Assembly (NCBI RefSeq): GCF_016903815.1
Contig: NZ_CP069973.1
DNA length: 64,000 nt
Strand: one strand, 5' to 3'
DNA from: Escherichia coli
GTDB lineage: Bacteria > Pseudomonadota > Gammaproteobacteria > Enterobacterales > Enterobacteriaceae
The position numbers and the translations under genes were made by a program. Within the stretch, counting starts at the first letter, position 1. The number at the start of each line of letters is the position of its first letter. The notes under the pieces were generated by a model, which saw nothing but the letters and a program-made list of their open reading frames with translations, searched no databases and had not been told where the DNA came from. Shown here piece by piece: positions 10,857-55,424 of the stretch.

Positions 10857-12509
<1,653 letters not shown>

Positions 12510-13513: not shown

Positions 13514-13584
13514 TAGAATGTCCTGAAAATTGCGGGTCCGTCAGGTGGAAACCTGTGACCAGAATAGAAGTGAGTTAGTAACAC

Positions 13585-13920
13585 CTACCCAATCAGCACG
13601 TTAATTTTGGCTTTAATGAGCTGTAATTCCTCTGGGGCAACCGTTCCTTTCTTCGTTGCTCCTCTTGCCCGCCAGGCGATACTTTTTACCTGATCAGCTA
13701 ACGCTACGCCATCACGTTCCTGACCGGATAAAACAACTTCGAACGGATATCCTTTTGATTGCGTTGTACAAGGAACACACAGACACATACCTGTTTTGTT
13801 GTTGTACATGAACGGACTCAGGACAACAGCCGGACGATGTCCGGCTTGCTCGCTACCTTTTGTCGGGTCAAAATCAACCCAAATCAGATCGCCCATATCG
13901 GGTACGTATCGGCTTACCAT
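13585..13920 (-). CDS. mazF: MazF endoribonuclease toxin
   Basis: 111-aa [39 protein letters not shown]... Confidence 0.95.
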   Translation of the reverse strand: MVSRYVPDMGDLIWVDFDPTKGSEQAGHRPAVVLSPFMYNNKTGMCLCVPCTTQSKGYPFEVVLSGQERDGVALADQVKSIAWRARGATKKGTVAPEELQLIKAKINVLIG

Positions 13921-16480: not shown

Positions 16481-16527
16481 CGTCCTCTCCTTTAGGGACC
16501 AGACCTGCCGAAATCGGCAAATCGTAA

Positions 16528-17829
16528 CTATTTAACGCGCGAGAAAAGTACCATCGATTCCAGATGTCCCGTGTGTGGGAACATATCCAGCATCGCCAGT
16601 CGCGCAATGGTATATCCTGCTTTTAATAACGCTTCGCTATCCCGAGCCAGCGTTGCAGGGTTACAGGATACATAAACTATACGAATAGGTTCCAGTTTTA
16701 TAATTTGCTGCATAACACCTGCGGCACCTGCTCGCGCCGGGTCCAGCAACACTTTATCGAAGCCGTTTTTCGCCCACGGCTGCTTTGTGACATCTTCTTC
16801 AAGATTTTCGTGATAAAACGTCACATTGTGTAAGCCATTAAGACGCGCATTCTGCTGGCCTTTTTCCACCAGCGCCGGAACGCCTTCTACACCCACCACA
16901 CTGGCAGCTTGTGTCGCCAATGGCAGTGTAAAGTTGCCCATACCGCAGAACAGATCCAGTACGCGATCTTCAGGTTGCACATCCAGCCATTCCAACGCAC
17001 GCGCTACCATTTTTTGGTTCACACCCGCATTGACCTGAATAAAATCGCGCGGGCTAAAAGTTAAGCGCAACCCGTTTGAGTCATACCAGGGCATCTCACC
17101 AGCGACGGTTTCGAGTATCTCACTATCGGGGGCGAGATACAGATCCAGGCCTTCAGAATGCGAAAAGCGTTCCAGTTTTTCGCGATCAGCCGAACTTAGC
17201 GGTGCGGTATGGCGCAAAATCATCAGCGTGCCGCTGGTTGCCTGTACCAGTTCAACATGACCAAGATGGCGCATAGCTTGTAAGCTGTCCAGGCATGCCC
17301 TGACTTTGGGCAGCAATGCTTCAAGTTGGGGCACTAAAATGGGGCATTGTTTAACGTCGACAATGTCACTGGAGCCCGCTTTGCGAAACCCCATCTGAAG
17401 TTGCTGTGTTTTCGGTAAGTAGTTCAAACTTAAACGCGCGCGACGGCGATAGCCCCAGGGAACATCGGCGATCACTTCAGAGACTTCGTGTTTCATTAAT
17501 CGGGCGAGTGCCGCACTTTTGCTTCGCTGCTGTAAATCCACGCTGGCGTGTTGTTGCTGACAGCCGCCGCATACGCCAAAATGAGGGCAGCGTGGCGTTT
17601 CGCGTTCCGGGTTATCGCTTAACCGGCGCACGACTTTAGCGCGAGCGTACTGTTTTTTATCTTCAGTAACAGTAACTTCCGCGTTTTCCTGTGGCAGTAA
17701 TCCAGGAATAAATAACGCTTTGCCGTTATGTCGCGCCACGCCCTGACCAAAAGAGTCGAGGTCGTTGACTGAAACAGTTATGATCTGACGCGTCGTCGTG
17801 CGTCGTTTTGCAGAGTAGAATTGCGCCAT
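16528..17829 (-). CDS. rlmD: 23S rRNA m5U1939 methyltransferase
   Basis: 433-aa ORF with TRAM and methyltransferase regions and Cys cluster; synteny. Confidence 0.9.
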
Positions 17830-33771: not shown

Positions 33772-34638
<867 letters not shown>

Positions 34639-34644
34639 CGGCGA

Positions 34645-34672
34645 GCCGGATACGCCGCAAACGTCGTATCCG
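34645..34672. terminator. Bidirectional hairpin between convergent xni and fucO
   Basis: ccggatacg-ccgcaaacgt-cgtatccgg perfect stem. Confidence 0.5.
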
Positions 34673-34692
34673 GCATTATCACATCAGCGCAT

Positions 34693-35841
34693 TTACCAGG
34701 CGGTATGGTAAAGCTCTACAATATCCTCAAGCGTTGCTTCACGCGGGTTGCCACCGGTACAAACATCATTCAGTGCCGCCTGCGCCAGTGCCGGAATGTC
34801 TTCCTTGCGTACCCCAACATCACGCAAATGTGGCGGAATACCGACATCACGGTTGAGAGCAAACACCGCTTCAACAGCGGCATTACGCGCCTCTTCCAGG
34901 CTCATACCTTCCACTTTCACGCCCATAACGCGCGCGATATCGCGGTACTTCTCACCGGTAAAGTCAGCGTTATAGCGCATGACATGCGGTAGCAGGATGG
35001 CGTTTGCAACACCGTGTGGAGTGTTATAAAACGCGCCCAGTGGATGCGCCATACCATGCACCAACCCTAACCCAACATTCGAGAAGCCCATACCCGCAAC
35101 ATACTGCCCGAGCGCTATTTCTTCTCCGGCATCCTTATCACCAGCAACCGATCCTCGCAGCGCCCCAGCAATGATTTCAATCGCTTTAATGTGCAGTGCA
35201 TCGGTTAGCGCCCACGCGCCACGGGTAATATACCCCTCAATAGCATGAGTGAGCGCATCGACACCCGTCGCAGCTTTCAGCGCTGGAGGCATACCATCCA
35301 TCATGTCAGCGTCAATAAACGCCACCTGCGGGATATCATGCGGATCAACGCAAACAAACTTGCGCCGTTTTTCTTCGTCAGTGATCACGTAGTTAATGGT
35401 CACTTCTGCCGCAGTGCCTGCTGTGGTGGGGATTGCCAGAATCGGTACACTGGGTTTATTGGTCGGGGAAAGCCCTTCCAGGCTACGCACATCGGCAAAC
35501 TCCGGGTTGTTGCTGATAATGCCAATCGCTTTACAAGTATCCTGTGGAGAACCACCACCAATAGCGATCAGGTAATCCGCGCCGCTATTCTGGAATACAC
35601 CGAGCCCTTCTTTGACGACAGTAATTGTTGGGTTGGGCACTACGCCGTCGTAAATCGCCCATGCCAGCCCTGCAGCATCCATCTTATCGGTCACTTTCGC
35701 CACCACGCCGCATTGCACCAGCGTTTTATCGGTGACGATCAGCGCCTTCTGATAACCACGGCGTTTCACCTCATCGGTTAAAGCCCCAACAGCACCCCGA
35801 CCAAACCATGCCGTTTCGTTCAGAATCATTCTGTTAGCCAT
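34693..35841 (-). CDS. fucO: L-1,2-propanediol oxidoreductase (lactaldehyde reductase)
   Basis: ORF 34693..35844 (MMANRMILNE...); iron-containing alcohol dehydrogenase; start at first or second Met. Confidence 0.93.
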   Translation of the reverse strand: MANRMILNETAWFGRGAVGALTDEVKRRGYQKALIVTDKTLVQCGVVAKVTDKMDAAGLAWAIYDGVVPNPTITVVKEGLGVFQNSGADYLIAIGGGSPQDTCKAIGIISNNPEFADVRSLEGLSPTNKPSVPILAIPTTAGTAAEVTINYVITDEEKRRKFVCVDPHDIPQVAFIDADMMDGMPPALKAATGVDALTHAIEGYITRGAWALTDALHIKAIEIIAGALRGSVAGDKDAGEEIALGQYVAGMGFSNVGLGLVHGMAHPLGAFYNTPHGVANAILLPHVMRYNADFTGEKYRDIARVMGVKVEGMSLEEARNAAVEAVFALNRDVGIPPHLRDVGVRKEDIPALAQAALNDVCTGGNPREATLEDIVELYHTAW

Positions 35842-35868
35842 CATCCTTCTCCTTGTTGCTTTACGAAA

Positions 35869-36516
35869 TTACTCTTCAATTCGTAACCCATAGGTTTTGA
35901 ATTTCTCCAGCACTACGGCAATCTCTTCATCGCTCAGCACTGGCACCGGGTCCGTAATCGCCAGGGTCGTCAGGTAAAGTTGCGCCAGCACTTCAACTTC
36001 ATGCGCCAGCCATAACGCTTTTTCCAGATTCACCTCACAAGCGATAAGCCCATGATGTTGTAACAAAGTTGCCTTACGATTTTTGAGAGCCAGCGCAACA
36101 TGTTCAGAAAGTTCACGTGTTCCAAAGGTCGCATAAGGCGCGCAAGGAATAGAATTACCGCCCGCCGCCGCAATCATGTAGTGAATAGCGGGGATCGGTC
36201 GGTTAAGAATGGAAACTGCCGTGCAATGAACGGCATGATTGTGAACAACCGCGTTGGCATCCGGTCTGCTTTGATAGGCTGCCATATGGAAACGCCACTC
36301 GCTGGAAGGAATCTTACCTTCTTCGTATTTGCCGTTGCCATCAACATAGACAATCATATTCTCCGTCATTCTTTCATAAGGAATACCGCTGGGAGTAATC
36401 AACATGCCGTTTTCAAAACGTGTGCTGACATTCCCCGCTGTCCCCTGATTTAACCCAAGGCGCGTCATTTCCAGACAGGTTTCAATTATTTCACGGGATA
36501 AACGTGTTCTTTCCAT
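35869..36516 (-). CDS. fucA: L-fuculose-1-phosphate aldolase
   Basis: 215-aa ORF MERTRLSREIIETCLEMTRLGLNQGTAGNVS... Confidence 0.95.
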   Translation of the reverse strand: MERTRLSREIIETCLEMTRLGLNQGTAGNVSTRFENGMLITPSGIPYERMTENMIVYVDGNGKYEEGKIPSSEWRFHMAAYQSRPDANAVVHNHAVHCTAVSILNRPIPAIHYMIAAAGGNSIPCAPYATFGTRELSEHVALALKNRKATLLQHHGLIACEVNLEKALWLAHEVEVLAQLYLTTLAITDPVPVLSDEEIAVVLEKFKTYGLRIEE

Positions 36517-36648
36517 TTCTATTCTCCAGATACAGTTTCAGCTCGCCTTGTTGCGTAAAACAGCACCGCAAATGAAGACGGGGTTATTTTTAGTAAGGGG
36601 AGGCCACTGAATATCATTGTTCAGTAGCCTGATATCTTTTGGCGATTA

Positions 36649-37647
36649 TTATTTTTTTCTTATGCGCTTAATTAATTTCATTCCTACTTTAACTGTTTTT
36701 TTGACTGGTCTTTCTTCGATCGCGCTTAACATCATTTCGAACGCTTTTTCTGCCCAGGCATTTTCATCCTGCTGCATTGACCAGACATTGTTGGCGAGAA
36801 ATCCCAGCATAGGATGTTCATCGAAAGTGCCAATATTGATTTCTGGCGGTACAGCGCCAAGACGGTCGCGAATCGCGCGGACAGCGCCTTCAAGCACAGG
36901 CAAAGACGAGGCGATAAATGCCTGCGGACATCCCTGCTCTTCAATGAGTTTTTCCATAATGACATAGCCGCCTTCCGGAGTATTTACCGGACCTTCCCGC
37001 ACCCAATCGCGATGGGTAATCCCTTTTTTTGCCAACGCATTCAAATAACCTGTCAGACGATCGCTGATACTCGGCAAACCGGCATCTCCCAGCAAAAACC
37101 ATACTGGAGCCTGCCCGGCCTCAAGAATATTTTGCGTCAGCTTTTCTCCGCCAGAAATATTATTACTCTCTACCAATGCGTTATCGGTATATTTAAAATC
37201 ACGATCGAGTAAAACCATGGGCTTACGAATTTTGCGTAAATGATGCTGCTGATTTTCCAGCGTCGAAGGAACAATAAAAAGACCATCTACATTTCGTGCG
37301 ATAAATGCTTTCGTCAATTTATTTTCATAGTCAACATCATCATAAGTGCAACTGATTGTAAGTTGATATCCGGAACGTCGACAGCGTTGTTCGAGTTTTT
37401 CTGCCAGCGTAGCAAAAAAGACGTTGGATATGTTGGGAACAATCAACCCTAATGTATCAGTTTTGTTAAGCTTAAGGCTGCGAGCGGAATGATTAATGAT
37501 ATAACCATAGCGTTCAACATATTCATTGATACGCGTTTGGGTTTTGACGCTGATTCGATATTGTTCCGCTTTTCCATTTAGCACCAGTCGCACGGTCGTA
37601 ACCGATAAATTCAGGTCGCTGGCTATCTGCTCTACTGTTTTAGCCAT
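36649..37647 (-). CDS. LacI/GalR-family transcriptional regulator
   Basis: 332-aa ORF with N-terminal HTH (MAKTVEQIASDLNLSVTTVRLVLNG...) and periplasmic-binding-like effector domain. Confidence 0.85.
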   Translation of the reverse strand: MAKTVEQIASDLNLSVTTVRLVLNGKAEQYRISVKTQTRINEYVERYGYIINHSARSLKLNKTDTLGLIVPNISNVFFATLAEKLEQRCRRSGYQLTISCTYDDVDYENKLTKAFIARNVDGLFIVPSTLENQQHHLRKIRKPMVLLDRDFKYTDNALVESNNISGGEKLTQNILEAGQAPVWFLLGDAGLPSISDRLTGYLNALAKKGITHRDWVREGPVNTPEGGYVIMEKLIEEQGCPQAFIASSLPVLEGAVRAIRDRLGAVPPEINIGTFDEHPMLGFLANNVWSMQQDENAWAEKAFEMMLSAIEERPVKKTVKVGMKLIKRIRKK

Positions 37648-37711
37648 AGGTATTTCCCAGTTAACATCCAGACGTCAAATCACAATCATAAAAGTATTTT
37701 CAACTTTTGTC

Positions 37712-39292
37712 TTATTGCATCAGTTGGTTAACCGCCTGTTGTTGCTCCCAAAGCGTCAGGTAAACCCGGTATTTACGCTCTAAAAATTCACGGCGTTGTG
37801 GATTTACCTGAATAATCTCTCCGGCTTCAACCATTGCTTTACACGCAGATGTAAAATCCCCCCATGCTCCGCTGGCAACAGCGCCGCTAATTGCTGCGCC
37901 CAACGTAACGGCATCTTCTTCTTGCATCAGGTGGATATCGCAACCTGTCACGTCTGCATATTCGCGTAGCCATAAAGGGTTGTGCGTTGCACCACCACAT
38001 AATGTTAATCGGGTAATGGTATGCCCATTTTCCCGCAGAGTTTCAATAATATGTCTGGTGCCAAAGGCTATTGCCTGTAAAGTCGCAAGATAAAGTCGCG
38101 CGAGCTGATTTTCACCACGCTCCAGTGTTAAGCCATAAACACTGCCTCTGGCATCGGGCCGCGCTCGTGGCGAACGGTTGCCGTGATGATCGGCAAGCAC
38201 ATGTAAATTTCGTGTGGGTTCTGACTCGTTAGCTTCAAGGGCTGCTACCCATTCATTAATCAGTTGAATCGGATGACATCCGCGTTGCTGCGCCTTGTGA
38301 AAAAGATTTGCGCTTGCCCCTGACTCCTGAAGCGTCCACTCCACCAGCGCCCCTGCGGCGCTTTGCCCGCCTTCGGTTAGCCAGTAATTTGGCAACATGG
38401 CCGACCAGTATGGCCCCCAGACGCCAGGGGTGAATATCTCTTTTTCACTACACAGCATATGGCAGTTCGACGTTCCGCTTATCAATGCCAGCGTTCCTAA
38501 TGGGTGAGCGCCAGCCAGCGCCACGCCACCGGCATGGGCATCAATCAAGCCACTGGCCACGATAACATTAGTCGTTAATCCTAACTCTTCAGCAGCTGTG
38601 GCGGTTAACGTTCCCACGGCAGCGCCAGGCGGAAGAATGTCGGCAGGAATTCTTTCAAGCATATCGGTCAGGTCTATCGATTCCAGTAAGCTATGGCTAA
38701 AGCGTTGCTCATGAGCTAGATAATTCCATTTACACGTTAGCGTGCATAATCCCGCGACGTCTCGCCCTGTTGCTTTCCAGACCAGAAAATCCGCCAGATC
38801 GAAAAAGCGATGAGCGGCCTGCCAGGTTTGCGGTAGATGCGTCTTCAACCAACGTAACTTTGGTAACTCCATCTCGACGCTCACTTCGCCGCCAACGTAG
38901 CGCAATGCGGGATCCTTCATTGCGTTAATCTGCGCCGTCTCGACAGTTGCACGATGATCCATCCACATAATAATGTCGTGATTCGCAGATCCACCGGACG
39001 AAACCGCTAAACCCTGGCCTTGTTCATCAAGAACAACCAGCGAGCAGGTAGCGTCAAAACCCAGTGAGCGAATTGCGGAAATGGGGATGCCTGCCAAAGC
39101 TGTCGCCTCTTTCACCGTTTTACAAACTTGTTGCCAGATCTCTGCCGAAGACTGTTCGACACGCTCGCCGCCAGGGCGAAACTGGGAGACGGGCGCAGTA
39201 GCGAATGCCAGCCTGTGGCCACTGGCACTGTAAACGCCTGCCCTGACACTGGCCGATCCGACATCGACACCGAGAAAATAACCGTTGTGCAT
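37712..39292 (-). CDS. FGGY-family pentulose-type kinase (candidate D-ribulokinase)
   Basis: ORF 37712..39412; start set at MHNGYFLGVDVGSASVRAGVY with AGGGAGG RBS (527 aa); DHHGNRSP motif typical of the ribulokinase/pentulose-kinase branch. Confidence 0.8.
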   Translation of the reverse strand: MHNGYFLGVDVGSASVRAGVYSASGHRLAFATAPVSQFRPGGERVEQSSAEIWQQVCKTVKEATALAGIPISAIRSLGFDATCSLVVLDEQGQGLAVSSGGSANHDIIMWMDHRATVETAQINAMKDPALRYVGGEVSVEMELPKLRWLKTHLPQTWQAAHRFFDLADFLVWKATGRDVAGLCTLTCKWNYLAHEQRFSHSLLESIDLTDMLERIPADILPPGAAVGTLTATAAEELGLTTNVIVASGLIDAHAGGVALAGAHPLGTLALISGTSNCHMLCSEKEIFTPGVWGPYWSAMLPNYWLTEGGQSAAGALVEWTLQESGASANLFHKAQQRGCHPIQLINEWVAALEANESEPTRNLHVLADHHGNRSPRARPDARGSVYGLTLERGENQLARLYLATLQAIAFGTRHIIETLRENGHTITRLTLCGGATHNPLWLREYADVTGCDIHLMQEEDAVTLGAAISGAVASGAWGDFTSACKAMVEAGEIIQVNPQRREFLERKYRVYLTLWEQQQAVNQLMQ

Positions 39293-39344
39293 AAAGCCTC
39301 CCTGACGCTGGAGATAACGGGGATGAAAATTCATCCCCAATTTT

Positions 39345-40295
39345 TTATTTCTTACCGAATGGGTGCAGGAGTTTGTCGATTTCTGGCGTGTTAATATTCT
39401 CGGCATTAACAAATTTCACGGGAATATCGATCTCTTTTTCAACGGCTTGCCCCGAAAGGGCCGCGTTCAACGTTTTGATCCCTTGATAGCCAATCTGGTA
39501 TGCATCCTGAACAACAAAGCCCTGAATGACGCCGTTCTTCAGGAAGTTAATAATCGCTTCCGTACTATCAAAACCAATGACCTTCACCTTACCTTTCAGA
39601 TTCTGGCTATCAATGGCATTCGCCACCCCGAGCGTTGAACCTTCATTGGTGCCATAGATCCCAGCAAGATCGGGATTGGCCTGAATCATATCGATAGTTT
39701 TATCCATCGCTTTTTGCGGGTCACCATCGCTGTACTGAACGGGTAAGACTTTAATGTCAGGATATTTTTCTTTCATACGCTCCATGAAGCCTTCCGAGCG
39801 TTCAATAGCGGAAGATGTTCCTGCAACGTGCGCGATAATCCCAACTTTCCCTTTATTATTTACCTGCGAGGCTAAGGCATCAGCTGCCTGAGCACCTGCT
39901 TTACGGTTATTGGTGGCGACAAAACTCACCGGAATGTCTGAATTGATGCCTGAATCAAAGGTCACCACTTTGATACCGCGTGAATTTGCCGTTTCTACCA
40001 GTGGGGCGAGCGCATTCGCGTCGAGGGCTGCCAGAAGCAAGCCATTCGGTTTCTGCGCCATCGCATTTTCGACTAACTGAATTTGCTCGGCTATTTGCGT
40101 TTCATCAGCCGGGCCAACATAGCTGGTTTTATCCCCCAACTCTTTAGCCGCAGCTTCAGTCCCCATTTTTACGGTTTGCCAGAATTCATGTTGGAAACCT
40201 TTACTAACAACCGGAAGATTTAAATCCTTCGCCAGTGCGCTGGAACTTACGCAAGCCAGCAGAGATAACGCATAGATAAAATGCCTGGTTTTCAT
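39345..40295 (-). CDS. periplasmic sugar-binding protein (RbsB-like) of the ABC transporter
   Basis: ORF 39345..40418; start set at MKTRHFIYALSLLACVSSSALA (signal peptide) giving 316 aa. Confidence 0.8.
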   Translation of the reverse strand: MKTRHFIYALSLLACVSSSALAKDLNLPVVSKGFQHEFWQTVKMGTEAAAKELGDKTSYVGPADETQIAEQIQLVENAMAQKPNGLLLAALDANALAPLVETANSRGIKVVTFDSGINSDIPVSFVATNNRKAGAQAADALASQVNNKGKVGIIAHVAGTSSAIERSEGFMERMKEKYPDIKVLPVQYSDGDPQKAMDKTIDMIQANPDLAGIYGTNEGSTLGVANAIDSQNLKGKVKVIGFDSTEAIINFLKNGVIQGFVVQDAYQIGYQGIKTLNAALSGQAVEKEIDIPVKFVNAENINTPEIDKLLHPFGKK

Positions 40296-40368
40296 TGTTG
40301 TACTCCGTTCTGAGTGAATCACCCTTAACGTCAGGGCAGTTGTTTCCCGATAAAACAGGGAGCCTAAG

Positions 40369-41352
40369 TCAACGAATCTTTTTGCGTAATGTATCGAGGT
40401 AAACGGCAGCGACCACAACGACGCCCATCGCGACCATTTGCCAGAACTGGGAGACGCCCATTAAATTGAGGCCATTTTTCAGTACACTCATAATGAAAGC
40501 GCCAATGATTGTGCCGCCAATAGTGCCAATACCGCCCATTAAGCTGGTTCCGCCAATCACTACCGCGGCAATAGCTTCCAGTTCATAACCCACACCTACC
40601 GTCGGTTGTCCGGAGTTGAGACGAGATGCCAGAATGACACCTGCAATCCCCGTTAATAATCCACAGAAGGCATAGACGAAAATTTTCACGCGCTGAACTT
40701 TAATACCAGAAAGATGAGCAGCAACTTCATTACTGCCTACGGCATAGACATAGCGACCAATGACGGTTTTCTTCAGGATGTAAGCGCCGACAAGCGCTAC
40801 AATGACAAGGTAGAAAACAGGATAAGGCAGCACATCAAATAAGCGTCCCTGAGCGAGCGTTTTGAACATCGGGTAATCGGCAAAATAGATGGCGCGCCCG
40901 TCGGTCATCACCATATTGATACCTCTGACGGACATCATCAGGCCCAAGGTAGCGATAAATGGTGGAATGGTCATTTTAGTGACCAACAAACCATTCACAT
41001 AGCCGCACATTCCACCGGCTAAAACACCGGCAATAATACACACTGGCAGCGGCAGGCCCAGTGTGGCGCAAATCCCCACGGCGACACCAGAAAAAGCCAC
41101 CACGGAGCCCAATGAAAGATCGATGCCCGCGGTAATAATGACGAAAGTTACCCCAATGGCCATAATGCCGATAACCGACGTTTGCAGAGCAATCGTCATG
41201 ATATTTTCGGTATTAAAGAAAAAGGGAGAGCTGAAACTAAAAAACAGCACTAATATAATTAAGCTAAAAAGAGGCGCAAGGCGCATCAAAAGTTCTTTAT
41301 TTATCTTTATTTTCTTATTATTACTGTCTGGAGAGGTTACAGAGATAGTCAT
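40369..41352 (-). CDS. sugar ABC transporter permease (RbsC-like)
   Basis: 327-aa hydrophobic ORF with multiple TM segments. Confidence 0.8.
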   Translation of the reverse strand: MTISVTSPDSNNKKIKINKELLMRLAPLFSLIILVLFFSFSSPFFFNTENIMTIALQTSVIGIMAIGVTFVIITAGIDLSLGSVVAFSGVAVGICATLGLPLPVCIIAGVLAGGMCGYVNGLLVTKMTIPPFIATLGLMMSVRGINMVMTDGRAIYFADYPMFKTLAQGRLFDVLPYPVFYLVIVALVGAYILKKTVIGRYVYAVGSNEVAAHLSGIKVQRVKIFVYAFCGLLTGIAGVILASRLNSGQPTVGVGYELEAIAAVVIGGTSLMGGIGTIGGTIIGAFIMSVLKNGLNLMGVSQFWQMVAMGVVVVAAVYLDTLRKKIR

Positions 41353-41355
41353 AAT

Positions 41356-42870
41356 TTAATCCTCTAACGTCGCGTATTGCATAATTTTTTCTTGTGTCGC
41401 TTCTTTTGCGCTAAGTTCGCCGGTAATTCGACCACTGCGCATCACTAAAATACGGTCGCACATTCCTAACACCTCAGGCAATTCAGAGGAGATCATGATG
41501 ATTGATTTCCCTTTTGCCACCAGGCGATTCATTAACTCATAGATTTCCAGTTTGGCGCCAACATCAATGCCGCGAGTGGGTTCATCGAAGATTAAAATAT
41601 CAGTATCTTTACACACCCAACGTGCAATTATAATTTTCTGCTGGTTTCCTCCACTTAGATTTAATGCCGCCTGTTCAAGATTTGGCGTTTTAATCCTTAA
41701 CGCTTTTACCTGTTCCTCACTGGTTTGTTGGCAACGACGCGAATCGACATTCCCAAAACGATCGGAATATTCAGGGTAGTTTCCTAACATAATATTTCGT
41801 TCAACAGATAAATTCAGCGCCAGCCCTTCTTTTTTGCGGTCTTCCGTCAGGTAACTAATTCCCTGCTGAATAGCATCCGAAATATCTTTAATAACGGTTT
41901 CCTTACCATTTAATTTTAGCGTTCCGCTGTCAATAGAATCCGCACCAAAAATCGCACGCGCAAGTTCAGTACGCCCCGCGCCCATCAGTCCGGCAAAGCC
42001 GAGGATCTCGCCACGATAAAGCGTAAAATTAATATCGTTCAGGACGCCTTTGCGCGTCAGTCCGTTTACCTCCAGAACCGGAATCCGCTGCTGCAAGGCC
42101 TCGCGGCGGGGATAGATATTCCCTAAATCGCGACCAACCATCATGGCAATCAGATCGCTGATTTTTACGCACTCATAATCCACCGTGCTGATGTACTGAC
42201 CATCACGCATTACAGTCGCACGGTCGGCAATTAGCGCCAACTCTTCCAGACGGTGGGAGATATAAACAATGCCGGTCCCCTGCTCTTTCAATAACCGGGT
42301 GACGCGAAATAAGCTTTCAATTTCAGTTTCTGTTAACGCCGCAGTAGGTTCATCCATAATGAGAATCCTGGCGTTAACTGAAATGGCCTTGGCAATTTCT
42401 ACCATCTGCTGCTGAGCTACCGTAAGGTCGGCAACCAGAGTATCTGGTTTGATCGCCAAATTTAATTTTTGCAAAATTTCAATCGTCGCCTGGCGTTGCT
42501 GTTTTTCATCCAGACGCCAGCGATTTTTTTTACAAAACTCCCTGCCGATAAAAATATTTTCTTCTACTGTAAGCTCGGGAAATAAATTAAATTCCTGGTG
42601 AATAATAGTAATACCTACGTTTTGCGCACTTAACGGATCAGAAAATGAGACTGGTTTATCTTCAAAAATTATTTCGCCTTCATCAGGTTGATAAACCCCC
42701 GACAAAATTTTCATTAAGGTAGATTTTCCTGCACCATTTTCACCTAATAATGCATGAACCTCGCCCCGGCGTAGGGAAAATTGCACGTCATTAAGCGCCA
42801 ACACTCCAGGAAAGCGTTTGGTGATATGCTTCATTTGCAAAAATGTTTCGGACATTGCAGCTTTCCTCAA
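41356..42870 (-). CDS. sugar ABC transporter ATP-binding protein with two NBDs (RbsA/CUT2-like)
   Basis: 504-aa ORF with Walker A GENGAGKST, second P-loop GLMGAGRTE and signature LSGGNQQK. Confidence 0.85.
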   Translation of the reverse strand: MRKAAMSETFLQMKHITKRFPGVLALNDVQFSLRRGEVHALLGENGAGKSTLMKILSGVYQPDEGEIIFEDKPVSFSDPLSAQNVGITIIHQEFNLFPELTVEENIFIGREFCKKNRWRLDEKQQRQATIEILQKLNLAIKPDTLVADLTVAQQQMVEIAKAISVNARILIMDEPTAALTETEIESLFRVTRLLKEQGTGIVYISHRLEELALIADRATVMRDGQYISTVDYECVKISDLIAMMVGRDLGNIYPRREALQQRIPVLEVNGLTRKGVLNDINFTLYRGEILGFAGLMGAGRTELARAIFGADSIDSGTLKLNGKETVIKDISDAIQQGISYLTEDRKKEGLALNLSVERNIMLGNYPEYSDRFGNVDSRRCQQTSEEQVKALRIKTPNLEQAALNLSGGNQQKIIIARWVCKDTDILIFDEPTRGIDVGAKLEIYELMNRLVAKGKSIIMISSELPEVLGMCDRILVMRSGRITGELSAKEATQEKIMQYATLED

Positions 42871-42987
42871 TAATCAGAAACTGAAAATGTGAAGTACGGC
42901 ATAAACGTCGCTACTAAAGCCATCTCCACTGTGATACGAATAACCTTTGAATAAATATTCATCGCATCAATCTATTCTTCGCATTTT

Positions 42988-43003
42988 GCTAACTCGAGTT
43001 AGC
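42988..43003. promoter_or_regulatory. 16-bp perfect palindrome GCTAACTCGAGTTAGC (candidate operator), upstream of the ABC operon
   Basis: Read directly; 118 bp upstream of the ATPase start codon on the minus strand; identical to the site at 43227. Confidence 0.5.
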
Positions 43004-43226
43004 GATCGCCTTTTAAAGCTATTTTAGGTATACAAATTAGCCAAATCATTTGAGTTAAAACTGTGATGCATAACCATTAAAATCTAATAACCATATGATT
43101 ATACGTAAAATTTATTTTTCTCCCGCTAAATAATAATTTGACAGAGATCGTATTTTAACCACTTCTCGTGAAGCCCCTCACATTTCAACAACAAAAAAGT
43201 TGTGCATAAAAAGCCTACAAACCTAA

Positions 43227-43242
43227 GCTAACTCGAGTTAGC
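43227..43242. promoter_or_regulatory. 16-bp perfect palindrome GCTAACTCGAGTTAGC (candidate operator), upstream of fucI
   Basis: Read directly; 83 bp upstream of the fucI ATG; identical to the site at 42988, 239 bp away. Confidence 0.5.
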
Positions 43243-43324
43243 AAATAATGACCAATACTACTGCTTCGGTGGTTTCCTTTCTCCGCCTTAGCAGAGCGCC
43301 AATAAAGCGAGATGAGGAATCCTG

Positions 43325-45100
43325 ATGAAAATTAATACGTTACCGAAAATTGGTATCCGCCCGGTTATTGACGGTCGTCGCATGGGTGTTCGTGAGTCGC
43401 TTGAAGAACAAACAATGAATATGGCGAAAGCCACGGCCACACTGCTGACCGAGAAACTGCGCCATGCCTGCGGAGCTGCCGTCGAGTGTGTCATTTCCGA
43501 TACCTGTATCGCGGGTATGGCTGAAGCCGCTGCTTGCGAAGAAAAATTCAGCAGCCAGAATGTAGGCCTCACCATTACGGTAACGCCTTGCTGGTGCTAT
43601 GGCAGTGAAACCATCGACATGGATCCAACCCGCCCGAAAGCCATTTGGGGCTTTAACGGCACTGAACGTCCCGGCGCTGTTTACCTGGCAGCGGCTCTGG
43701 CAGCTCACAGCCAGAAAGGCATCCCGGCATTCTCCATTTACGGTCATGACGTTCAGGATGCCGATGACACATCGATTCCAGCCGATGTTGAAGAAAAACT
43801 GCTGCGCTTTGCCCGCGCCGGTTTGGCAGTCGCCAGCATGAAAGGTAAAAGCTATCTGTCGCTGGGCGGCGTTTCGATGGGTATCGCTGGTTCCATCGTT
43901 GATCACAACTTCTTTGAATCCTGGCTGGGAATGAAAGTCCAGGCGGTGGATATGACCGAACTGCGTCGCCGTATCGATCAGAAGATTTACGACGAAGCCG
44001 AACTGGAAATGGCGCTGGCCTGGGCTGATAAAAACTTCCGCTACGGCGAAGATGAAAATAACAAACAGTATCAACGCAATGCCGAGCAAAGCCGCGCAGT
44101 TCTGCGCGAAAGTTTACTGATGGTGATGTGTATCCGCGACATGATGCAAGGCAACAGCAAACTGGCCGATATTGGTCGCGTGGAAGAATCACTTGGCTAC
44201 AACGCCATCGCTGCGGGCTTCCAGGGACAACGCCACTGGACCGATCAATATCCCAATGGTGACACTGCCGAAGCGATCCTCAACAGTTCATTTGACTGGA
44301 ATGGCGTGCGCGAACCCTTTGTCGTGGCGACCGAAAACGACAGTCTTAACGGCGTGGCAATGCTAATGGGTCACCAGCTCACCGGCACCGCTCAGGTATT
44401 TGCCGATGTGCGTACCTACTGGTCACCAGAAGCAATTGAGCGTGTAACGGGGCATAAACTCGATGGACTGGCAGAACACGGCATCATCCATTTGATCAAC
44501 TCAGGTTCTGCTGCGCTGGACGGTTCCTGTAAACAACGCGACAGCGAAGGTAACCCGACGATGAAGCCACACTGGGAAATCTCTCAGCAAGAGGCTGACG
44601 CTTGCCTCGCCGCTACCGAATGGTGCCCGGCGATCCACGAATACTTCCGTGGCGGCGGTTACTCTTCCCGCTTCCTTACCGAAGGCGGCGTCCCGTTCAC
44701 CATGACTCGTGTCAACATCATCAAAGGCCTGGGACCGGTACTGCAAATCGCGGAAGGCTGGAGCGTGGAATTGCCGAAGGATGTGCATGACATCCTCAAC
44801 AAACGCACCAACTCAACCTGGCCAACCACCTGGTTTGCACCGCGCCTCACCGGTAAAGGGCCGTTTACGGATGTGTACTCGGTAATGGCGAACTGGGGCG
44901 CTAACCATGGGGTTCTGACCATCGGCCACGTTGGCGCAGACTTTATCACTCTCGCCTCCATGCTGCGTATCCCGGTATGTATGCACAACGTTGAAGAGAC
45001 CAAAGTGTATCGTCCTTCTGCCTGGGCTGCGCACGGCATGGATATTGAAGGCCAGGATTACCGCGCTTGCCAGAACTACGGTCCGTTGTACAAGCGTTAA
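43325..45100 (+). CDS. fucI: L-fucose isomerase
   Basis: 591-aa [41 protein letters not shown]...; GAGGAA RBS. Confidence 0.95.
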
Positions 45101-45178
45101 TACATTACTCCCTGATGTGATGCCCGGTCGCTCCGGCTACCGGGCCTGAACAAGCAAGAGTGGTTAGCCGGATAAGCA

Positions 45179-46627
45179 ATGTTATCCGGCTATATTGCAG
45201 GAGCGATTATGAAACAAGAAGTTATCCTGGTACTCGACTGTGGCGCGACCAATGTCAGGGCCATCGCGGTTAATCGGCAGGGCAAAATTGTTGCCCGCGC
45301 CTCAACGCCTAATGCCAGCGATATCGCGATGGAAAACAACACCTGGCACCAGTGGTCTTTAGACGCCATTTTGCAACGCTTTGCTGATTGCTGTCGGCAA
45401 ATCAATAGTGAACTGACTGAATGCCACATCCGCGGTATCGCCGTCACCACCTTTGGTGTGGATGGCGCTCTGGTAGATAAGCAAGGCAATCTGCTCTATC
45501 CGATCATTAGCTGGAAATGTCCGCGAACAGCAGCGGTTATGGACAATATTGAACAGTTGATCTCCGCACAGCGGTTGCAGGCTATTTCTGGCGTCGGAGC
45601 CTTTAGTTTCAATACGTTATATAAGTTGGTGTGGTTGAAAGAAAATCATCCACAACTGCTGGAACGCGCGCACGCCTGGCTCTTCATTTCGTCGCTGATT
45701 AACCACCGTTTAACCGGCGAATTCACTACTGATATCACGATGGCCGGAACCAGCCAGATGCTGGATATCCAGCAACGCGATTTCAGTCCGCAAATTTTAC
45801 AAGCCACCGGTATTCCACACCGACTCTTCCCTCGTCTGGTGGAAGCGGGTGAACAGATTGGTACGCTACAGAACAGCGCCGCAGCAATGCTCGGCTTACC
45901 CGTTGGCATACCGGTGATTTCCGCAGGTCACGATACCCAGTTCGCCCTTTTTGGCGCAGGTGCCGAACAAAATGAACCCGTGCTCTCCTCCGGTACATGG
46001 GAAATTTTAATGGTTCGCAGCGCCCAGGTTGATACTTCGCTGTTAAGTCAGTACGCCGGTTCCACCTGCGAACTGGATAGCCAGGCAGGGTTGTATAACC
46101 CAGGTATGCAATGGCTGGCATCCGGCGTGCTGGAATGGGTGAGAAAACTGTTCTGGACGGCTGAAACACCCTGGCAAATGTTGATTGAAGAGGCTCGTCT
46201 GATCGCGCCTGGCGCGGATGGCGTGAAAATGCAGTGTGATTTATTGTCGTGTCAGAACGCTGGCTGGCAAGGAGTGACGCTTAATACTACGCGGGGGCAT
46301 TTCTATCGCGCGGCGCTGGAAGGGTTAACTGCGCAATTACAGCGCAATCTACAGATGCTGGAAAAAATCGGGCACTTTAAAGCCTCTGAATTATTGTTAG
46401 TCGGCGGAGGAAGTCGCAACACATTGTGGAATCAGATTAAAGCCAATATGCTTGATATTCCGGTAAAAGTTCTCGACGATGCCGAAACGACCGTCGCAGG
46501 AGCTGCGCTGTTCGGTTGGTATGGCGTAGGGGAATTTAACAGCCCGGAAGAAGCCCGTGCACAGATTCATTATCAGTACCGTTATTTCTACCCGCAAACT
46601 GAACCTGAATTTATAGAGGAAGTGTGA
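45179..46627 (+). CDS. fucK: L-fuculokinase
   Basis: 482-aa FGGY kinase ORF; synteny. Confidence 0.93.
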
Positions 46628-46628
46628 A

Positions 46629-47051
46629 ATGCTGAAAACAATTTCGCCGTTAATTTCTCCCGAACTATTGAAAGTGCTGGCAGAGATGGGACATGGAGAT
46701 GAAATTATTTTTTCCGATGCTCACTTTCCCGCCCATTCGATGGGACCGCAGGTGATCCGCGCTGATGGCCTGTTGGTGAGCGACTTGCTCCAGGCGATTA
46801 TCCCGTTATTTGAACTGGACAGTTACGCACCGCCGCTGGTGATGATGGCAGCGGTAGAAGGTGACACTCTCGATCCTGAAGTAGAACGACGTTACCGTAA
46901 TGCGCTTTCACTACAAGCCCCGTGTCCTGACATCATCCGCATCAATCGTTTTGCGTTTTATGAACGGGCGCAAAAAGCCTTTGCGATCGTTATCACAGGC
47001 GAACGAGCGAAGTACGGGAATATTCTTTTAAAAAAAGGGGTAACACCGTAA
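46629..47051 (+). CDS. fucU: L-fucose mutarotase
   Basis: 140-aa ORF; synteny. Confidence 0.93.
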
Positions 47052-47108
47052 TCTCATACCGGTACGCCCGCATGACGCGGGCGGTTATCGAATGATGGGG
47101 TGAAAAAT

Positions 47109-47840
47109 ATGAAAGCGGCACGCCAGCAAGCGATAGTCGACCTGCTGCTGAACCATACCAGCCTGACCACGGAAGCTCTCTCTGAACAGCTAAAGGTCAG
47201 TAAAGAAACCATTCGTCGCGATCTCAATGAATTACAGACGCAGGGTAAAATTCTGCGCAATCATGGACGCGCTAAATATATCCACCGTCAAAATCAAGAC
47301 AGTGGCGATCCCTTTCACATCAGGCTGAAAAGCCATTATGCGCATAAAGCAGATATCGCGCGCGAGGCGCTCGCGTGGATTGAAGAAGGGATGGTGATAG
47401 CCTTAGACGCCAGTTCAACTTGCTGGTATCTGGCACGCCAGTTGCCTGACATCAACATTCAGGTCTTCACCAATAGCCATCCGATTTGCCATGAACTCGG
47501 TAAACGCGAACGCATTCAACTGATCAGTTCCGGCGGCACACTTGAGCGCAAATATGGCTGTTACGTCAATCCCTCGCTGATTTCCCAACTTAAATCGCTG
47601 GAAATCGATCTGTTTATTTTTTCTTGTGAAGGGATCGATAGCAGCGGCGCACTGTGGGACTCCAATGCCATCAACGCTGATTACAAATCGATGCTATTAA
47701 AACGTGCCGCGCAATCGTTGTTATTGATTGATAAAAGTAAATTTAATCGTTCAGGGGAAGCCCGCATCGGGCATCTGGATGAGGTAACGCACATTATTTC
47801 TGATGAGCGCCAGGTTGCAACTTCTTTGGTAATAGCCTGA
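47109..47840 (+). CDS. fucR: DeoR-family L-fucose operon activator
   Basis: ORF 47100..47840; start set at MKAARQQAIVDLLLNHTSL giving 243 aa. Confidence 0.9.
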   Translation: MKAARQQAIVDLLLNHTSLTTEALSEQLKVSKETIRRDLNELQTQGKILRNHGRAKYIHRQNQDSGDPFHIRLKSHYAHKADIAREALAWIEEGMVIALDASSTCWYLARQLPDINIQVFTNSHPICHELGKRERIQLISSGGTLERKYGCYVNPSLISQLKSLEIDLFIFSCEGIDSSGALWDSNAINADYKSMLLKRAAQSLLLIDKSKFNRSGEARIGHLDEVTHIISDERQVATSLVIA

Positions 47841-47883
47841 CGGAAAGGGTAGCAGGCCGGAGACGACGCCCCGGCCTTGCCTG

Positions 47884-48984
47884 TTATCGCTCGTCGCGAC
47901 GACCACCCACCGCAGCCCAGATGCGGCGGACGTGCACCGTCACTTCTTCGCGATCGTGATACAACTGCCGCGCCTGAATCTGAGCATTTATGCCATGTTC
48001 ATCAAGCTGTGCCTGAATATACGCCAGATTGTGTGACACTTCTTCGTAGCGTTTTTTCATCGGCAGTTTGAGGTTGAAAATGGTTTCACGACACCAGCCA
48101 TTAACCAGCCACTGCGCCATCAATGCCGCAACTTTCGCCGGTTTTTCAACCATATCGCATACCATCCAGGAGATATTGCTGCGCGTCGGACGGAATTTGA
48201 AACCGTCTTCCCGCAGCCACGTCACCTGTCCGGTATCCATCAGACTTTGCGCCATCGGGCCGTTGTCGACGGAATAAACCCACATGTTGCGCTTCACCAG
48301 TTGGTAGGTCCAGCCGCCAGGGCAAGCGCCTAAATCCACCGCCCACATCCCGTTCGCCAGGCGTTCATCCCACTCATCCGCAGGAATAAACACATGAAAT
48401 GCCTCTTCCAGTTTGAGTGTGGAACGACTCGGCGCATCTGCCGGAAATTTCAGGCGCGGAATGCCCATATAGAACGGCGAATTATTGTTGCTGTATGAGT
48501 AACCGGTATAGCAGCAGCCTGGTGCAATAAAGAATACATGCACAACCGGACGCTTCGGCGTTTCATAGTTCGCCAGCACCCCAGCATCGCGCAAGGCAGC
48601 GCGTAGCGGCACGGTGAATTTACGGCAGAATTTCAGCAACTCTTTGCTTTCGTTGGTATCGGCAACTTCAACACGCAGTTCACCGCCCTTCTCTACTACA
48701 CCCTGTAACATGCCGACAATGGGGGTAATACGATCTTCTGGCGGCAAATGCTGCAGGAGTTCCCCCACCACAAACCACTGGCGGGCAAAAATTAATGAAC
48801 TGAACGGCAGCTCACGGATTAACTTATCGCCATCATCAGGTTGATAACATTCATAAATGACATAACCCGCATTCTCTTTCACGCGGGCAAAACCGAAAAT
48901 TTCCCGCTGGCCGGCTTTATCGGTAATTTCTGCGGCGCACTCTTTTTCAAACCCCGGACGGCACAGCAATACAACCTTATTCAT
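47884..48984 (-). CDS. rlmM: 23S rRNA 2'-O-ribose C2498 methyltransferase
   Basis: 366-aa ORF; synteny. Confidence 0.9.
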
Positions 48985-55127: not shown

Positions 55128-55204
<77 letters not shown>

Positions 55205-55237
55205 ATTAAAATTTGATGAAGTAAAGCAGTACGGTGA

Positions 55238-55314
<77 letters not shown>

Positions 55315-55347
55315 ATCAAATTTGATGAAGTAAAAGCAGTACGGTGA

Positions 55348-55424
<77 letters not shown>

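Follow-up and report, generated by a model that had tools for sequence, protein, structure and literature searches.

Between fucA and fucI, E. coli K-12 carries the gene for the fucose symporter FucP. In the window, by which we mean the whole 64-kb stretch of E. coli DNA analysed here, five other genes occupy this place, which raises the question of what they are, how they came to be there and which sugars they serve. In K-12, the fucPIKUR/fucAO regulon combines the MFS symporter FucP with FucR, an activator that works with fuculose-1-P, and with CRP. We found that an ABC sugar importer, a D-ribulose kinase and a LacI-type repressor stand in for fucP and the control region that belongs to it. 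The locus is intact and has been described before: it is the less common form of the E. coli fucose locus, the one known from E. coli B/BL21. The replacement is real but already known; new here is the conservation across genera of two identical 16-bp palindromes and a CRP-like site in its divergent control region.

Gene content of the locus

As the initial annotation had proposed, five intact genes lie on the minus strand between the starts of fucA (36516) and fucI (43325), at the coordinates given there (Table 1). The K-12-type locus holds only a 546-bp control region and fucP between the same two genes, and K-12 has none of the five. A tblastn search of the 64-kb window with K-12 FucP upheld the reported absence of fucP (best E = 0.18), and the fuc enzymes are intact as described, with fucO, fucA, fucI, fucK, fucU and fucR all matching RefSeq proteins.

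FucI, FucK, FucA, FucO, FucU and FucR are common to the window and K-12 at 99-100% identity, and both loci share a divergent two-operon layout around a control region of ~0.5 kb, with CRP in K-12 matched by a CRP-like site in the window. In contrast, the transporter is of the ABC rather than the MFS class, the control-region sequences are unrelated, the four FucR operators of K-12 are missing, and the window has a LacI-type repressor and a second kinase in addition.

Table 1. Features of the fucose locus, numbered from the first position of the window
Feature	Position	Strand	Description and basis
fucO	34693..35841	-	K-12-like, 99.1%
fucA	35869..36516	-	L-fuculose-phosphate aldolase, chimeric; alignment
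Haplotype-specific tract	36298..43340	.	pairwise alignment with the K-12-type locus, sliding identity over 30 bp
Stem-loop in 132-bp LacI-fucA spacer	36601..36630	-	-33.4 kcal/mol, z = -2.95 (134-nt spacer folded)
LacI-family regulator	36649..37647	-	332 aa, WP_001140843.1; NCBIfam, RefSeq
darK	37712..39292	-	FGGY pentulose kinase, 526 aa; TIGR01315, 531 bits against cut-off 409
Intercistronic stem-loop directly after binding-protein gene	39319..39338	-	-19.6 kcal/mol, z = -3.0
Periplasmic sugar-binding protein	39345..40295	-	316 aa; signal peptide, type-I PBP fold
ABC permease	40369..41352	-	327 aa, RbsC/AraH-like; NCBIfam profiles
ABC ATPase	41356..42855	-	499 aa, two fused NBDs; NCBIfam profiles
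Divergent control region	42856..43324	.	469 bp, 36% GC; alignments, footprint over 19 loci
O1	42988..43003	.	perfect 16-bp palindrome GCTAACTCGAGTTAGC; candidate LacI operator
CRP-like site	43167..43182	.	CGTGA-N6-TCACA; footprint alignment
O2	43227..43242	.	second identical palindrome; candidate LacI operator
fucI-fucK-fucU-fucR	43325..47840	+	K-12-like (98.9-99.7% nt) from about fucI codon 6 on

Identity with the E. coli B allele

Although the five genes were correctly placed in the position of fucP, the initial annotation missed that this is a well-known E. coli B allele, identical in BL21 and REL606. From sdaB to rlmM, alignment gives 100% nucleotide identity to BL21(DE3), apart from the IS1 in BL21's fucA, and the REL606 locus is the same, likewise with IS1 in fucA. 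Both B strains share the five genes and their fucA/fucI position with the window but carry fucA::IS1, whereas fucA is intact in the window strain, which is identical to E. coli 7/2, from human faeces in Sweden. The LacI regulator, binding protein, permease and ATPase have the same WP accessions in the window and in REL606/BL21(DE3), and the kinase gene differs by ~0.1% of nucleotides.

The locus is the classical E. coli B "L-fucose-D-arabinose" cluster with the D-ribulokinase DarK. The 1994 map by Elsinghorst & Mortlock reportedly has fucP still in place, with 5.2 kb of inserted DNA separating it from fucA; in contrast to that reported map, the window sequence is without fucP and its net gain is 4,913 bp. 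A later publication lists DarK as inserted into the fucose locus (PMC12307932, which cites Elsinghorst & Mortlock 1994), and the variant with an ABC transporter instead of fucP was published in 2023 by Saif et al. as 'Variant 2', with BL21 as its representative and a permease called 'yjfF' (PMC10221146). The ABC transporter likewise takes the place of fucP in the window, and the published frequency of Variant 2, with 50/1058 genomes and 3/40 isolates, is similar in magnitude to the 381/5426 found here. The same publication is silent on the LacI regulator, the kinase and its link to D-arabinose, the junctions, and BL21's fucA::IS1.

Junctions and mode of replacement

The island had been delimited as 36517-43324; its place holds, but its size does not, because both breakpoints fall inside fucA and fucI and the foreign tract is slightly larger (~36298-43340). 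More specifically, identity to K-12 falls from ~99% to ~75% at about codon 73 of fucA and the tract ends at about codon 6 of fucI. The tract spans ~7.0 kb, with the same net gain of 4,913 bp over K-12, and is 100% identical to that of BL21(DE3). The fucA gene is chimeric: its 3' 429 nt are K-12-like (99.3%), while its 5' 219 nt are island-type, with 75.6% identity to K-12 and 90.4% to E. whittamii. The FucA protein WP_000442593.1 is identical in three E. coli island haplotypes.

The island is AT-richer than its surroundings, as had been noted (46.1% GC against 51.7-52.1% in the flanks), and unevenly so, with 36.2% GC in the control region and 52.6% in darK. Also in agreement with the initial annotation, hallmarks of a mobile element are missing: the ORF list and protein matches of the window contain no transposase or integrase, no tRNA lies nearer than 55128, and no terminal direct or inverted repeats are present at the tract ends. 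Junctions inside genes, together with the lack of mobility genes, tRNA and terminal repeats, argue for allelic replacement by homologous recombination, the mode suggested previously. The segment would accordingly appear to be an old allelic replacement, kept as a minority haplotype (~7%) in E. coli.

Distribution and direction of replacement

Among 5,426 complete E. coli genomes, the island occurs in 381-382 and fucP in 5,042, each at one place per genome. The two are mutually exclusive, and no carrier of the island has fucP elsewhere. In other species, the cassette is flanked by fucA and fucI (E. whittamii, at least 14 Citrobacter, Enterobacter, Lelliottia, Huaxiibacter, Buttiauxella, Atlantibacter, Pluralibacter and Serratia) or is collinear with fucIKU(R) or fucIKUAO (Sodalis, Acerihabitans and Vibrio); none of these cassette-bearing loci has a close fucP. 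All five island genes are under purifying selection (dN/dS 0.01-0.19; LacI 0.04-0.10).

Contrary to the direction assumed by the initial annotation, the LacI/ABC haplotype may, as a tentative reading, be the vertically inherited Escherichia-Citrobacter arrangement. The incoming segment would then be the K-12-type one, comprising the fucA 5' end, the control region with the FucR operators and fucP, which rose to ~93% of E. coli. In a comparison of E. coli, E. whittamii and Citrobacter, the divergence of island-type segments follows the species tree (88-91% identity with E. whittamii and 72-82% with Citrobacter, next to 90-93% and 77-84% for flanking genes), and the K-12-type fucA 5' segment is the outlier, with 72% to E. 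whittamii, 67% to Citrobacter and 76% to the island type. Furthermore, xni to rlmM synteny is equal in E. whittamii and Citrobacter, and island dS within E. coli (0.014-0.08) equals that of the flanking fuc genes. However, fucP is carried by 93% of E. coli, Salmonella is reported to be fucP-type (PMC10221146), and among Escherichia species representatives the cassette is present only in E. whittamii, whose fucIKU is unusually far from that of E. coli (81-85%), so this lineage has a recombination history of its own. Such a reversal would affect the history of the locus alone and would not conflict with the functional model below.

D-arabinose utilization and probable transporter substrates

The darK product is the kinase that acts on D-ribulose in the D-arabinose pathway of E. 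coli B. It is encoded by the sole kinase gene within the B-specific segment; ECD_02649 is assigned to the D-ribulokinase reaction RBK_D1 (PMC6150544), the kinase is named DarK in PMC12307932, and B strains grow on D-arabinose while K-12 does not (PMC3446290, PMC6150544).

We regard it as probable that the tract, as an old allelic replacement, encodes an L-fucose/D-arabinose ABC importer, DarK and a LacI repressor under CRP/LacI control. In exchange for the fucA 5' end, the FucR/CRP control region and the fucP gene of K-12, the tract would supply three functions: a CUT2-type ABC importer, the D-ribulokinase and a LacI-family repressor. L-fucose and D-arabinose, the presumed substrates, would both enter through the ABC system and be isomerised by FucI. 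L-fuculose would then follow the FucK/FucA route as in K-12, and D-ribulose would be converted by DarK to D-ribulose-5-phosphate and enter the pentose-phosphate pathway, which would let carriers grow on D-arabinose without mutation.

In the profile search, none of the three ABC components reaches any NCBIfam equivalog cut-off: the ATPase reaches 589 bits with the RbsA model (cut-off 745), with XylG, GguA and AraG similar and also under cut-off, and the permease reaches 304 bits with RbsC (cut-off 398) and 249 with AraH (cut-off 378). The best PDB matches of the binding protein (AF2 model pLDDT 91.4) are 4RXT (36% identity) and 4WUT (37%), the latter crystallised with D-fucose, of the enantiomeric series opposite to L-fucose. 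From its genomic setting, we infer a CUT2-type importer for L-fucose and its structural analogue D-arabinose, since the occurrence of the cassette in, or fused to, fuc loci across genera argues that it is the importer of the locus. The ABC cassette also persists where darK is absent. Of the two options offered initially, an ABC system that imports fucose or a locus rewired for a different sugar, probably both apply: DarK adds D-arabinose, and the conserved neighbourhood points to fucose/D-arabinose import.

It is unlikely that the transporter instead serves the D-arabinose branch (D-arabinose/D-ribulose) or another pentose and not L-fucose, with carriers importing fucose poorly via unrelated low-affinity systems and trading fucose for D-arabinose use. 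BL21 grows on fucose no better than a K-12 delta-fucP mutant (PMC10221146) and REL606 is fucose-negative and D-arabinose-positive (PMC3446290), but this evidence is confounded because both carry fucA::IS1, which alone explains weak fucose growth. The BL21 metabolic model does give B strains a D-arabinose ABC uptake reaction, DARBabcpp (PMC6150544); the same candidate operator lies in front of a GH172 enzyme gene in Lelliottia and Huaxiibacter, whose product is a relative of alpha-D-arabinofuranosidases, and D-ribulose-specific ABC systems exist elsewhere in E. coli and Citrobacter (PMC12307932). Nevertheless, all isolates in PMC10221146 fermented fucose, three fucP-negative ones included, and the cassette is kept in the fuc locus, with no close fucP there, in many darK-less species (C. 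amalonaticus, C. sedlakii, Buttiauxella, two Atlantibacter, Serratia DD3, Sodalis, Acerihabitans and V. mimicus).

The Rbl (C. rodentium) and Aau (EHEC) D-ribulose systems (Cottam et al. 2025, PMC12307932) are also CUT2-type pentose ABC importers, and Rbl is paired with an FGGY D-ribulokinase feeding the pentose-phosphate pathway, like DarK. However, their genomic context is another and their kinase is of a different clade according to PMC12307932, whereas the window cassette is part of the fuc locus and needs FucI to turn D-arabinose into D-ribulose. No close relationship was seen between their binding proteins and that of the window, whose closest matches of known structure are 4RXT and 4WUT.

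A recently acquired genomic island, or mobile cargo for an unrelated sugar such as ribose, that deleted fucP would fit the lower GC (46% against 52% in the flanks) and the database name 'ribose transport system', but is highly improbable and effectively refuted by the junction and synteny data, given the missing integrase, transposase, tRNA and terminal repeats, breakpoints inside homologous genes, one chimeric FucA common to three E. coli haplotypes ~1.5% apart, a position and fuc linkage that recur over many genera, and transporter scores below the RbsABC cut-offs.

Control region and candidate operators

The divergent control region stands in place of the K-12 fucA-fucP control region, which holds all known FucR and CRP operators, including four FucR operators that all lie within the replaced DNA (PMC11894529). 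In the CRP-like site, both half-sites are invariant over the 19 loci, and it is a putative CRP site, assigned solely by its consensus match. O1 lies 133-148 bp upstream of the ATPase start codon. O2, at a distance of 239 bp from O1, precedes the start codon of fucI by 83-98 bp, and when flanks are included the two sites form a perfect 19-nt inverted pair. They are the only two matches with at most 3 mismatches in 64 kb, against 0.13 expected.

In all enterobacterial loci that have a LacI gene and take in the control region, both palindromes are kept, 238-240 bp apart. In Vibrio, the palindrome is single-copy and adjoins LacI/darK, and it is absent from K-12 and from Vibrio loci without LacI. 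The palindromes therefore track the LacI gene and are likely its operators, although Sodalis and Acerihabitans, which have the palindrome and no LacI gene within 20 kb, count against this.

The best NCBIfam match of the regulator is the FruR/ScrR subfamily (TIGR02417), but at 234 bits, well under the cut-off of 390, it is not a Cra/ScrR orthologue; the Cra/FruR-ScrR branch is its nearest family match. The Cra consensus is a 16-bp palindrome with a central CG and GCT...AGC ends. O1 and O2 resemble it, as perfect 16-bp palindromes with a CG centre and GCT...AGC ends.

On this sequence evidence, we propose that the LacI regulator represses both divergent operons, one reading leftward (ATPase-permease-SBP-darK-lacI-fucA-fucO, probably ended by fucO) and one rightward (fucIKUR), with operon boundaries that are likewise predicted. 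Both would be governed from the 469-bp spacer, by the repressor, with a presumed effector and presumed occupancy of O1/O2, and by CRP at the conserved site. Only 30 bp separate the LacI gene from fucA in Lelliottia and Huaxiibacter, which suggests co-transcription. Promoter scans gave no strong sigma-70 matches. At least nine LacI-bearing loci are without any fucR, the new control region has no conserved FucR box of the K-12 type, and FucR in carriers is under purifying selection; its retention without a conserved FucR box makes the regulatory picture incomplete.

The stem-loop between the LacI gene and fucA is stable and was rejected as a canonical terminator owing to its missing U-tract. Citrobacter has a hairpin of different sequence at the position matching the stem-loop that follows the binding-protein gene.

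An ABC-transporter cassette in the position of fucP

In place of fucP, the interval between fucA and fucI holds five intact genes, as the initial annotation had claimed, and spans 6,808 bp compared with 1,895 bp in K-12. K-12 itself was correctly said to lack these genes: at this point the K-12-type locus consists of a 546-bp control region plus fucP and nothing more. Likewise, no fucP-like ORF was found in the window (tblastn with K-12 FucP, best E = 0.18), and the island is AT-richer than its flanks, with 46.1% GC against about 52%. An Rfam scan of positions 34000-48000 returned no families, and consensus scans for promoters and terminators gave no enrichment over shuffled sequences, the promoter scans being uninformative. 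Elsewhere in the window, three tandem tRNA-Met genes (55128-55424) lie in their usual arrangement beside mltA/amiC; they are the same in BL21 and unrelated to the island.

Genes of the fucA-fucI region in the window
Feature	Position	Strand	Product length
fucA	35869-36516	minus	
LacI-family regulator	36649-37647	minus	332 aa
FGGY-family kinase (darK)	37712-39292	minus	526 aa
Periplasmic binding protein	39345-40295	minus	316 aa
Permease	40369-41352	minus	327 aa
Two-NBD ATPase	41356-42855	minus	499 aa
fucI	43325-45100	plus	

Identity with the E. coli B allele

Because the whole stretch from sdaB to rlmM is 100% identical at the nucleotide level to that of BL21(DE3), except for an IS1 element in the BL21 fucA, the locus in the window is the E. 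coli B fucose/D-arabinose allele of the fuc locus. The regulator, binding protein, permease and ATPase carry the same accessions in BL21, and REL606 encodes the same proteins. The window also matches, at 100% identity, E. coli strain 7/2, a human faecal strain from Sweden.

The locus has long been known as the E. coli B allele, and the exchange of fucP for an ABC transporter has already been published. Elsinghorst and Mortlock reportedly described an extra 5.2-kb segment bearing darK in 1994; the net size difference from the K-12 locus is 4,913 bp. D-arabinose is reported to support growth of REL606 and BL21(DE3) without mutation, but not of K-12, and the kinase ECD_02649, placed 'between fucA and fucI', was given the D-ribulokinase reaction (PMC3446290, PMC6150544). 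The locus corresponds as well to 'Variant 2' of the fuc operon, with an ABC transporter instead of fucP; this variant, represented by BL21, was counted in 50 of 1,058 genomes and 3 of 40 isolates (PMC10221146). What is added here is incremental and consists of the exact breakpoints, the frequency of 7% with its strict exclusivity towards fucP, the confounding effect of fucA::IS1, the linkage of transporter and fuc genes across genera, a candidate operator pair with a CRP site, and the frequent absence of FucR from LacI-bearing loci.

The state of fucA bears directly on the published phenotypes. The gene is intact in the window strain and split by IS1A in BL21(DE3) (NC_012971.2, 2765631-2767055) and REL606 (NC_012967.1, 2821970-2823394). 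The slow growth of BL21 on fucose was taken as a sign of poorer fucose import by the ABC transporter (PMC10221146), and REL606 was scored fucose-negative (PMC3446290). Since fucA::IS1 alone blocks the pathway, these phenotypes say nothing on transport, and the comparisons of fucose growth in print between BL21 or REL606 and K-12 are confounded. The window strain, with its intact fucA, would be a proper test organism for fucose transport by the ABC system.

Junctions and origin by recombination

The window is about 99-100% identical to the K-12-type locus through fucO and the 3' 429 nt of fucA, after which fucA identity falls to about 75% near position 36298 and stays low until the start of the gene. 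At the opposite end, the differences from the K-12 type are confined to the first 5-6 codons of fucI. Given these breaks inside fucA and fucI, the foreign tract is placed at about 36298-43340, and it was exchanged by homologous recombination within the two genes. This agrees with the initial annotation, which had proposed a recombinational replacement rather than a mobile element on the grounds that integrase, transposase and tRNA junction were lacking: we detected no mobility gene, no tRNA within 12 kb and no terminal repeats. A mobile genomic island was accordingly rejected, as the junctions lie inside genes and tRNA, IS and terminal repeats are absent.

Three E. coli haplotypes share an identical chimeric FucA (WP_000442593.1), which indicates one ancestral event followed by diversification. 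Within E. coli, the island genes have a dS of 0.014-0.08, the same as the fuc genes beside them, and all five island genes are under purifying selection (dN/dS 0.01-0.19).

Distribution in E. coli

Of 5,426 complete E. coli genomes, 381-382 (7.0%) carry the island, in each case as a single chromosomal copy, and 5,042 of the same set have the K-12 control region with fucP. Because the two sets are complementary and sum to essentially all genomes, carriers have no fucP anywhere, as the initial annotation would require. The carriers include the B strains and E. coli C, along with isolates of human, pig, poultry, cattle, wildlife and water origin, and fall into two haplotype classes, about 100% and about 98.3-98.7% identical to the window. 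Two carriers, NZ_CP137737.1 and NZ_CP066839.1, depart from the intact form: one has its island interrupted by an ISKpn26 element, and the other matches only 66% of the kinase and binding-protein query, pointing to partial deletion or disruption. Among roughly 5,400 fucI/fucP matches, one lies on a record typed as plasmid rather than chromosome.

For E. coli, fucose released from the mucus of the gut serves both as a key nutrient and as a signal. FucP is entirely lacking from about 7% of complete genomes of the species, among them BL21, REL606 and E. coli C; these genomes instead encode a predicted ATP-dependent importer, another regulator and a branch for D-arabinose. This bears on fucose feeding and 2'-fucosyllactose work in BL21, and it affects the assignment of transport reactions in metabolic models of B strains.

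Relatives in other taxa

A scan with the binding protein, covering one genome per bacterial species, returned 55 loci. The position xni-fucO-fucA-cassette-fucI-K-U-(R)-rlmM is common to E. whittamii and at least 14 Citrobacter species, and the cassette also sits between fucA and fucI in Enterobacter hormaechei, Lelliottia, Huaxiibacter, Pseudenterobacter, Pluralibacter, Buttiauxella, Atlantibacter and one Serratia. The three ABC genes directly precede fucI-K-U-R in Sodalis and Acerihabitans and stand in line with fucIKUAO in Vibrio, and a Clostridiales MAG has the order binding protein gene-fucU-fucI-fucK-fucA. No close fucP was found in the loci of these relatives.

The E. whittamii locus carries the LacI/ABC/darK cassette, yet has no fucR between fucU (about 3721 in that locus) and rlmM. 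Its fucI, fucK and fucU are 81-85% identical to those of E. coli in nucleotide sequence (dS about 1.0-1.2), compared with about 93% (dS about 0.5) for the genes flanking them, and the E. whittamii locus is a mosaic as well.

The ABC transporter and its substrate

The transporter is a CUT2-type set, composed of an ATPase of about 500 aa with two fused NBDs, one RbsC-like permease and a periplasmic binding protein of type I. The proteins match the RbsA/XylG/AraG, RbsC/AraH and RbsB/AlsB models of NCBIfam at the domain level, and every equivalog cut-off is missed. The name RbsABC ribose transporter, found in some databases, was therefore rejected: the scores are 589 bits against a cut-off of 745 for RbsA, 127 against 337 for RbsB and 304 against 398 for RbsC, and the genomic context is fuc, not rbs.

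The structure of the binding protein was predicted with AF2 from a 32-sequence alignment (pLDDT 91; the single-sequence version, at pLDDT 43, was unusable) and is confidently a PBP type-I fold. The nearest solved structures, in agreement with a Foldseek search of the PDB, are 4RXT, whose ligand we take to be D-arabinose, and 4WUT, both of which are just 36-37% identical. The ligand of 4WUT is D-fucose, as supported by a preprint. Our literature search found no characterised homologous ABC transporter for fucose or D-arabinose.

The main evidence on function comes from gene linkage. The transporter is linked to fucI, fucK, fucU or fucA, with no fucP in the locus, at about 35 loci from Enterobacteriaceae, Sodalis, Acerihabitans and Vibrio, and in addition in the Clostridiales MAG. 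Since this linkage is conserved over large distances and independently of darK, we infer that the ABC system imports sugar for the fuc locus itself, with L-fucose and its analogue D-arabinose as the likely cargo. FucI accepts D-arabinose as well as L-fucose. The initial proposal, that fucose would enter through the ABC system or that the locus serves a different sugar, holds up, probably with both applying.

Control region, regulator and candidate operators

The regulator combines an N-terminal HTH with a PBP-like effector domain and aligns over its full length to many LacI-family models, in agreement with the RefSeq annotation. Its nearest branch is the Cra/FruR-ScrR subfamily (TIGR02417), yet membership was rejected at 234 bits against a cut-off of 390. 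We found nothing in the literature on this LacI-type repressor.

The spacer of 469 bp that separates the ATPase gene from fucI has no sequence relation to the K-12 control region. The latter contains all four FucR operators and CRP sites (PMC11894529). Within the spacer, the perfect 16-bp palindrome GCTAACTCGAGTTAGC, with CG at its centre, occurs twice, at 42988-43003 (O1) and 43227-43242 (O2). These are the sole matches in the 64 kb with up to three mismatches allowed (0.13 expected), and the two sites plus flanking bases make up a perfect 19-nt inverted pair. In a footprint of 19 loci from at least six genera, both palindromes stand out as conserved blocks amid freely diverging DNA, together with a CRP-like site, CGTGA-N6-TCACA (43167-43182), a TGTGA block and the fucI ribosome-binding site.

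The palindrome tracks the LacI gene across genomes, with the exception of Sodalis and Acerihabitans. More specifically, it occurs twice, 238-240 bp apart, in every enterobacterial LacI-bearing locus that contains the control region, and once beside LacI/darK in four Vibrio loci; none was found in K-12 or in two Vibrio loci without LacI. In Sodalis sp. dw_96 and Acerihabitans arboris, one perfect copy lies upstream of ATPase-permease-binding protein-fucIKUR (7343 and 7374 of the respective loci), and the 20-kb loci of both hold no LacI homologue. Furthermore, fucR is missing from at least nine LacI-bearing loci, E. whittamii among them, which leaves the LacI protein as the sole regulator encoded there.

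Due to the conservation of the palindromes, their association with the LacI gene and these absences of fucR, we propose that the LacI-family repressor would control both divergent operons through the candidate operators O1 and O2, with CRP as a putative co-activator at the spacer. The leftward operon probably runs from the ATPase gene through fucO, because the gap between the LacI gene and fucA is short (132 bp in the window, just 30 bp in Lelliottia and Huaxiibacter) and both intercistronic stem-loops lack U-tracts.

FucR is intact and constrained in the E. coli carriers, with no recognisable K-12-type box; no boxes of this type, taken to be four ATGACCG repeats, are conserved in the new control region. 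The Escherichia, Citrobacter and Enterobacter groups all keep a GATCG(T/A)ATTTT block (43146-43156 in the window), located some 20 bp upstream of the CRP-like site. Given its loose resemblance to the repeats of ATGACCGT type in the K-12 control region, this block could represent a FucR half-site.

In Lelliottia (12351-13793 of its locus) and Huaxiibacter (about 15743-17183), the 16-bp operator is present a third time, about 100 bp upstream of an operon of two genes adjoining fucA. The products of this operon are a GH172/DUF2961 enzyme and a symporter of the GPH family, and the enzyme matches alphaFFase1 (PDB 7V1V, E = 3e-162) and is kin to an exo-alpha-D-arabinofuranosidase (8IC8). This hints that the repressor regulon in these two genera may include D-arabinofuranoside use.

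Relative age of the two haplotypes

The island-type segments are 88-91% identical to E. whittamii and 72-82% to Citrobacter, compared with 90-93% and 77-84% for the flanking core genes. The K-12-type fucA 5' segment is the outlier, with 72% identity to E. whittamii, 67% to Citrobacter and 76% to the island type. As the divergence of the island thus tracks its flanks, these values fit an ABC haplotype inherited vertically in the Escherichia-Citrobacter lineage and a fucP module that was brought in, a tentative reading to which we give less than even weight; the comparison covered E. whittamii and Citrobacter, with the fucP type represented by E. coli only. A protein search with the K-12 FucA N-terminus, bearing on the direction of replacement, returned almost only short fragments.

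More broadly, the LacI/ABC haplotype could be the ancestral fuc locus of Escherichia and Citrobacter, with a LacI repressor that senses a free sugar and acts at two conserved operators, and not FucR with fuculose-1-phosphate, as the master switch of fucose and D-arabinose catabolism, a reading that we consider less likely than not. If true, two anciently diverged, functionally alternative modules for fucose uptake and regulation would form a long-lived polymorphism in E. coli (about 7% versus 93%), and competition for mucus-derived fucose could be affected.

The darK kinase

The kinase passes the curated cut-off of TIGR01315 (FGGY-family pentulose kinase; 531 bits against 409) and scores only 56 bits with the FucK model. 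By homology, the island would therefore encode a D-ribulokinase distinct from FucK. The gene is found in only part of the cassette-bearing loci. Its GC content of 52.6%, against 43-47%, prompted the idea of a late insertion into the LacI-ABC cassette. This was ruled out by remnants of the darK 3' end between the binding-protein and LacI genes in two C. amalonaticus loci (about 10950-11200), and by Vibrio, which likewise pairs darK and LacI with an ABC-fuc operon. Since the 3' remnants survive, darK was lost secondarily in C. amalonaticus rather than originally missing.

Directly after the binding-protein gene, a stable stem-loop is predicted on the minus strand at 39319-39338 (-19.6 kcal/mol, z = -3.0), and Citrobacter retains a hairpin of different sequence at this position. 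Lying between the transporter genes and darK, this element may act in mRNA stability or attenuation.
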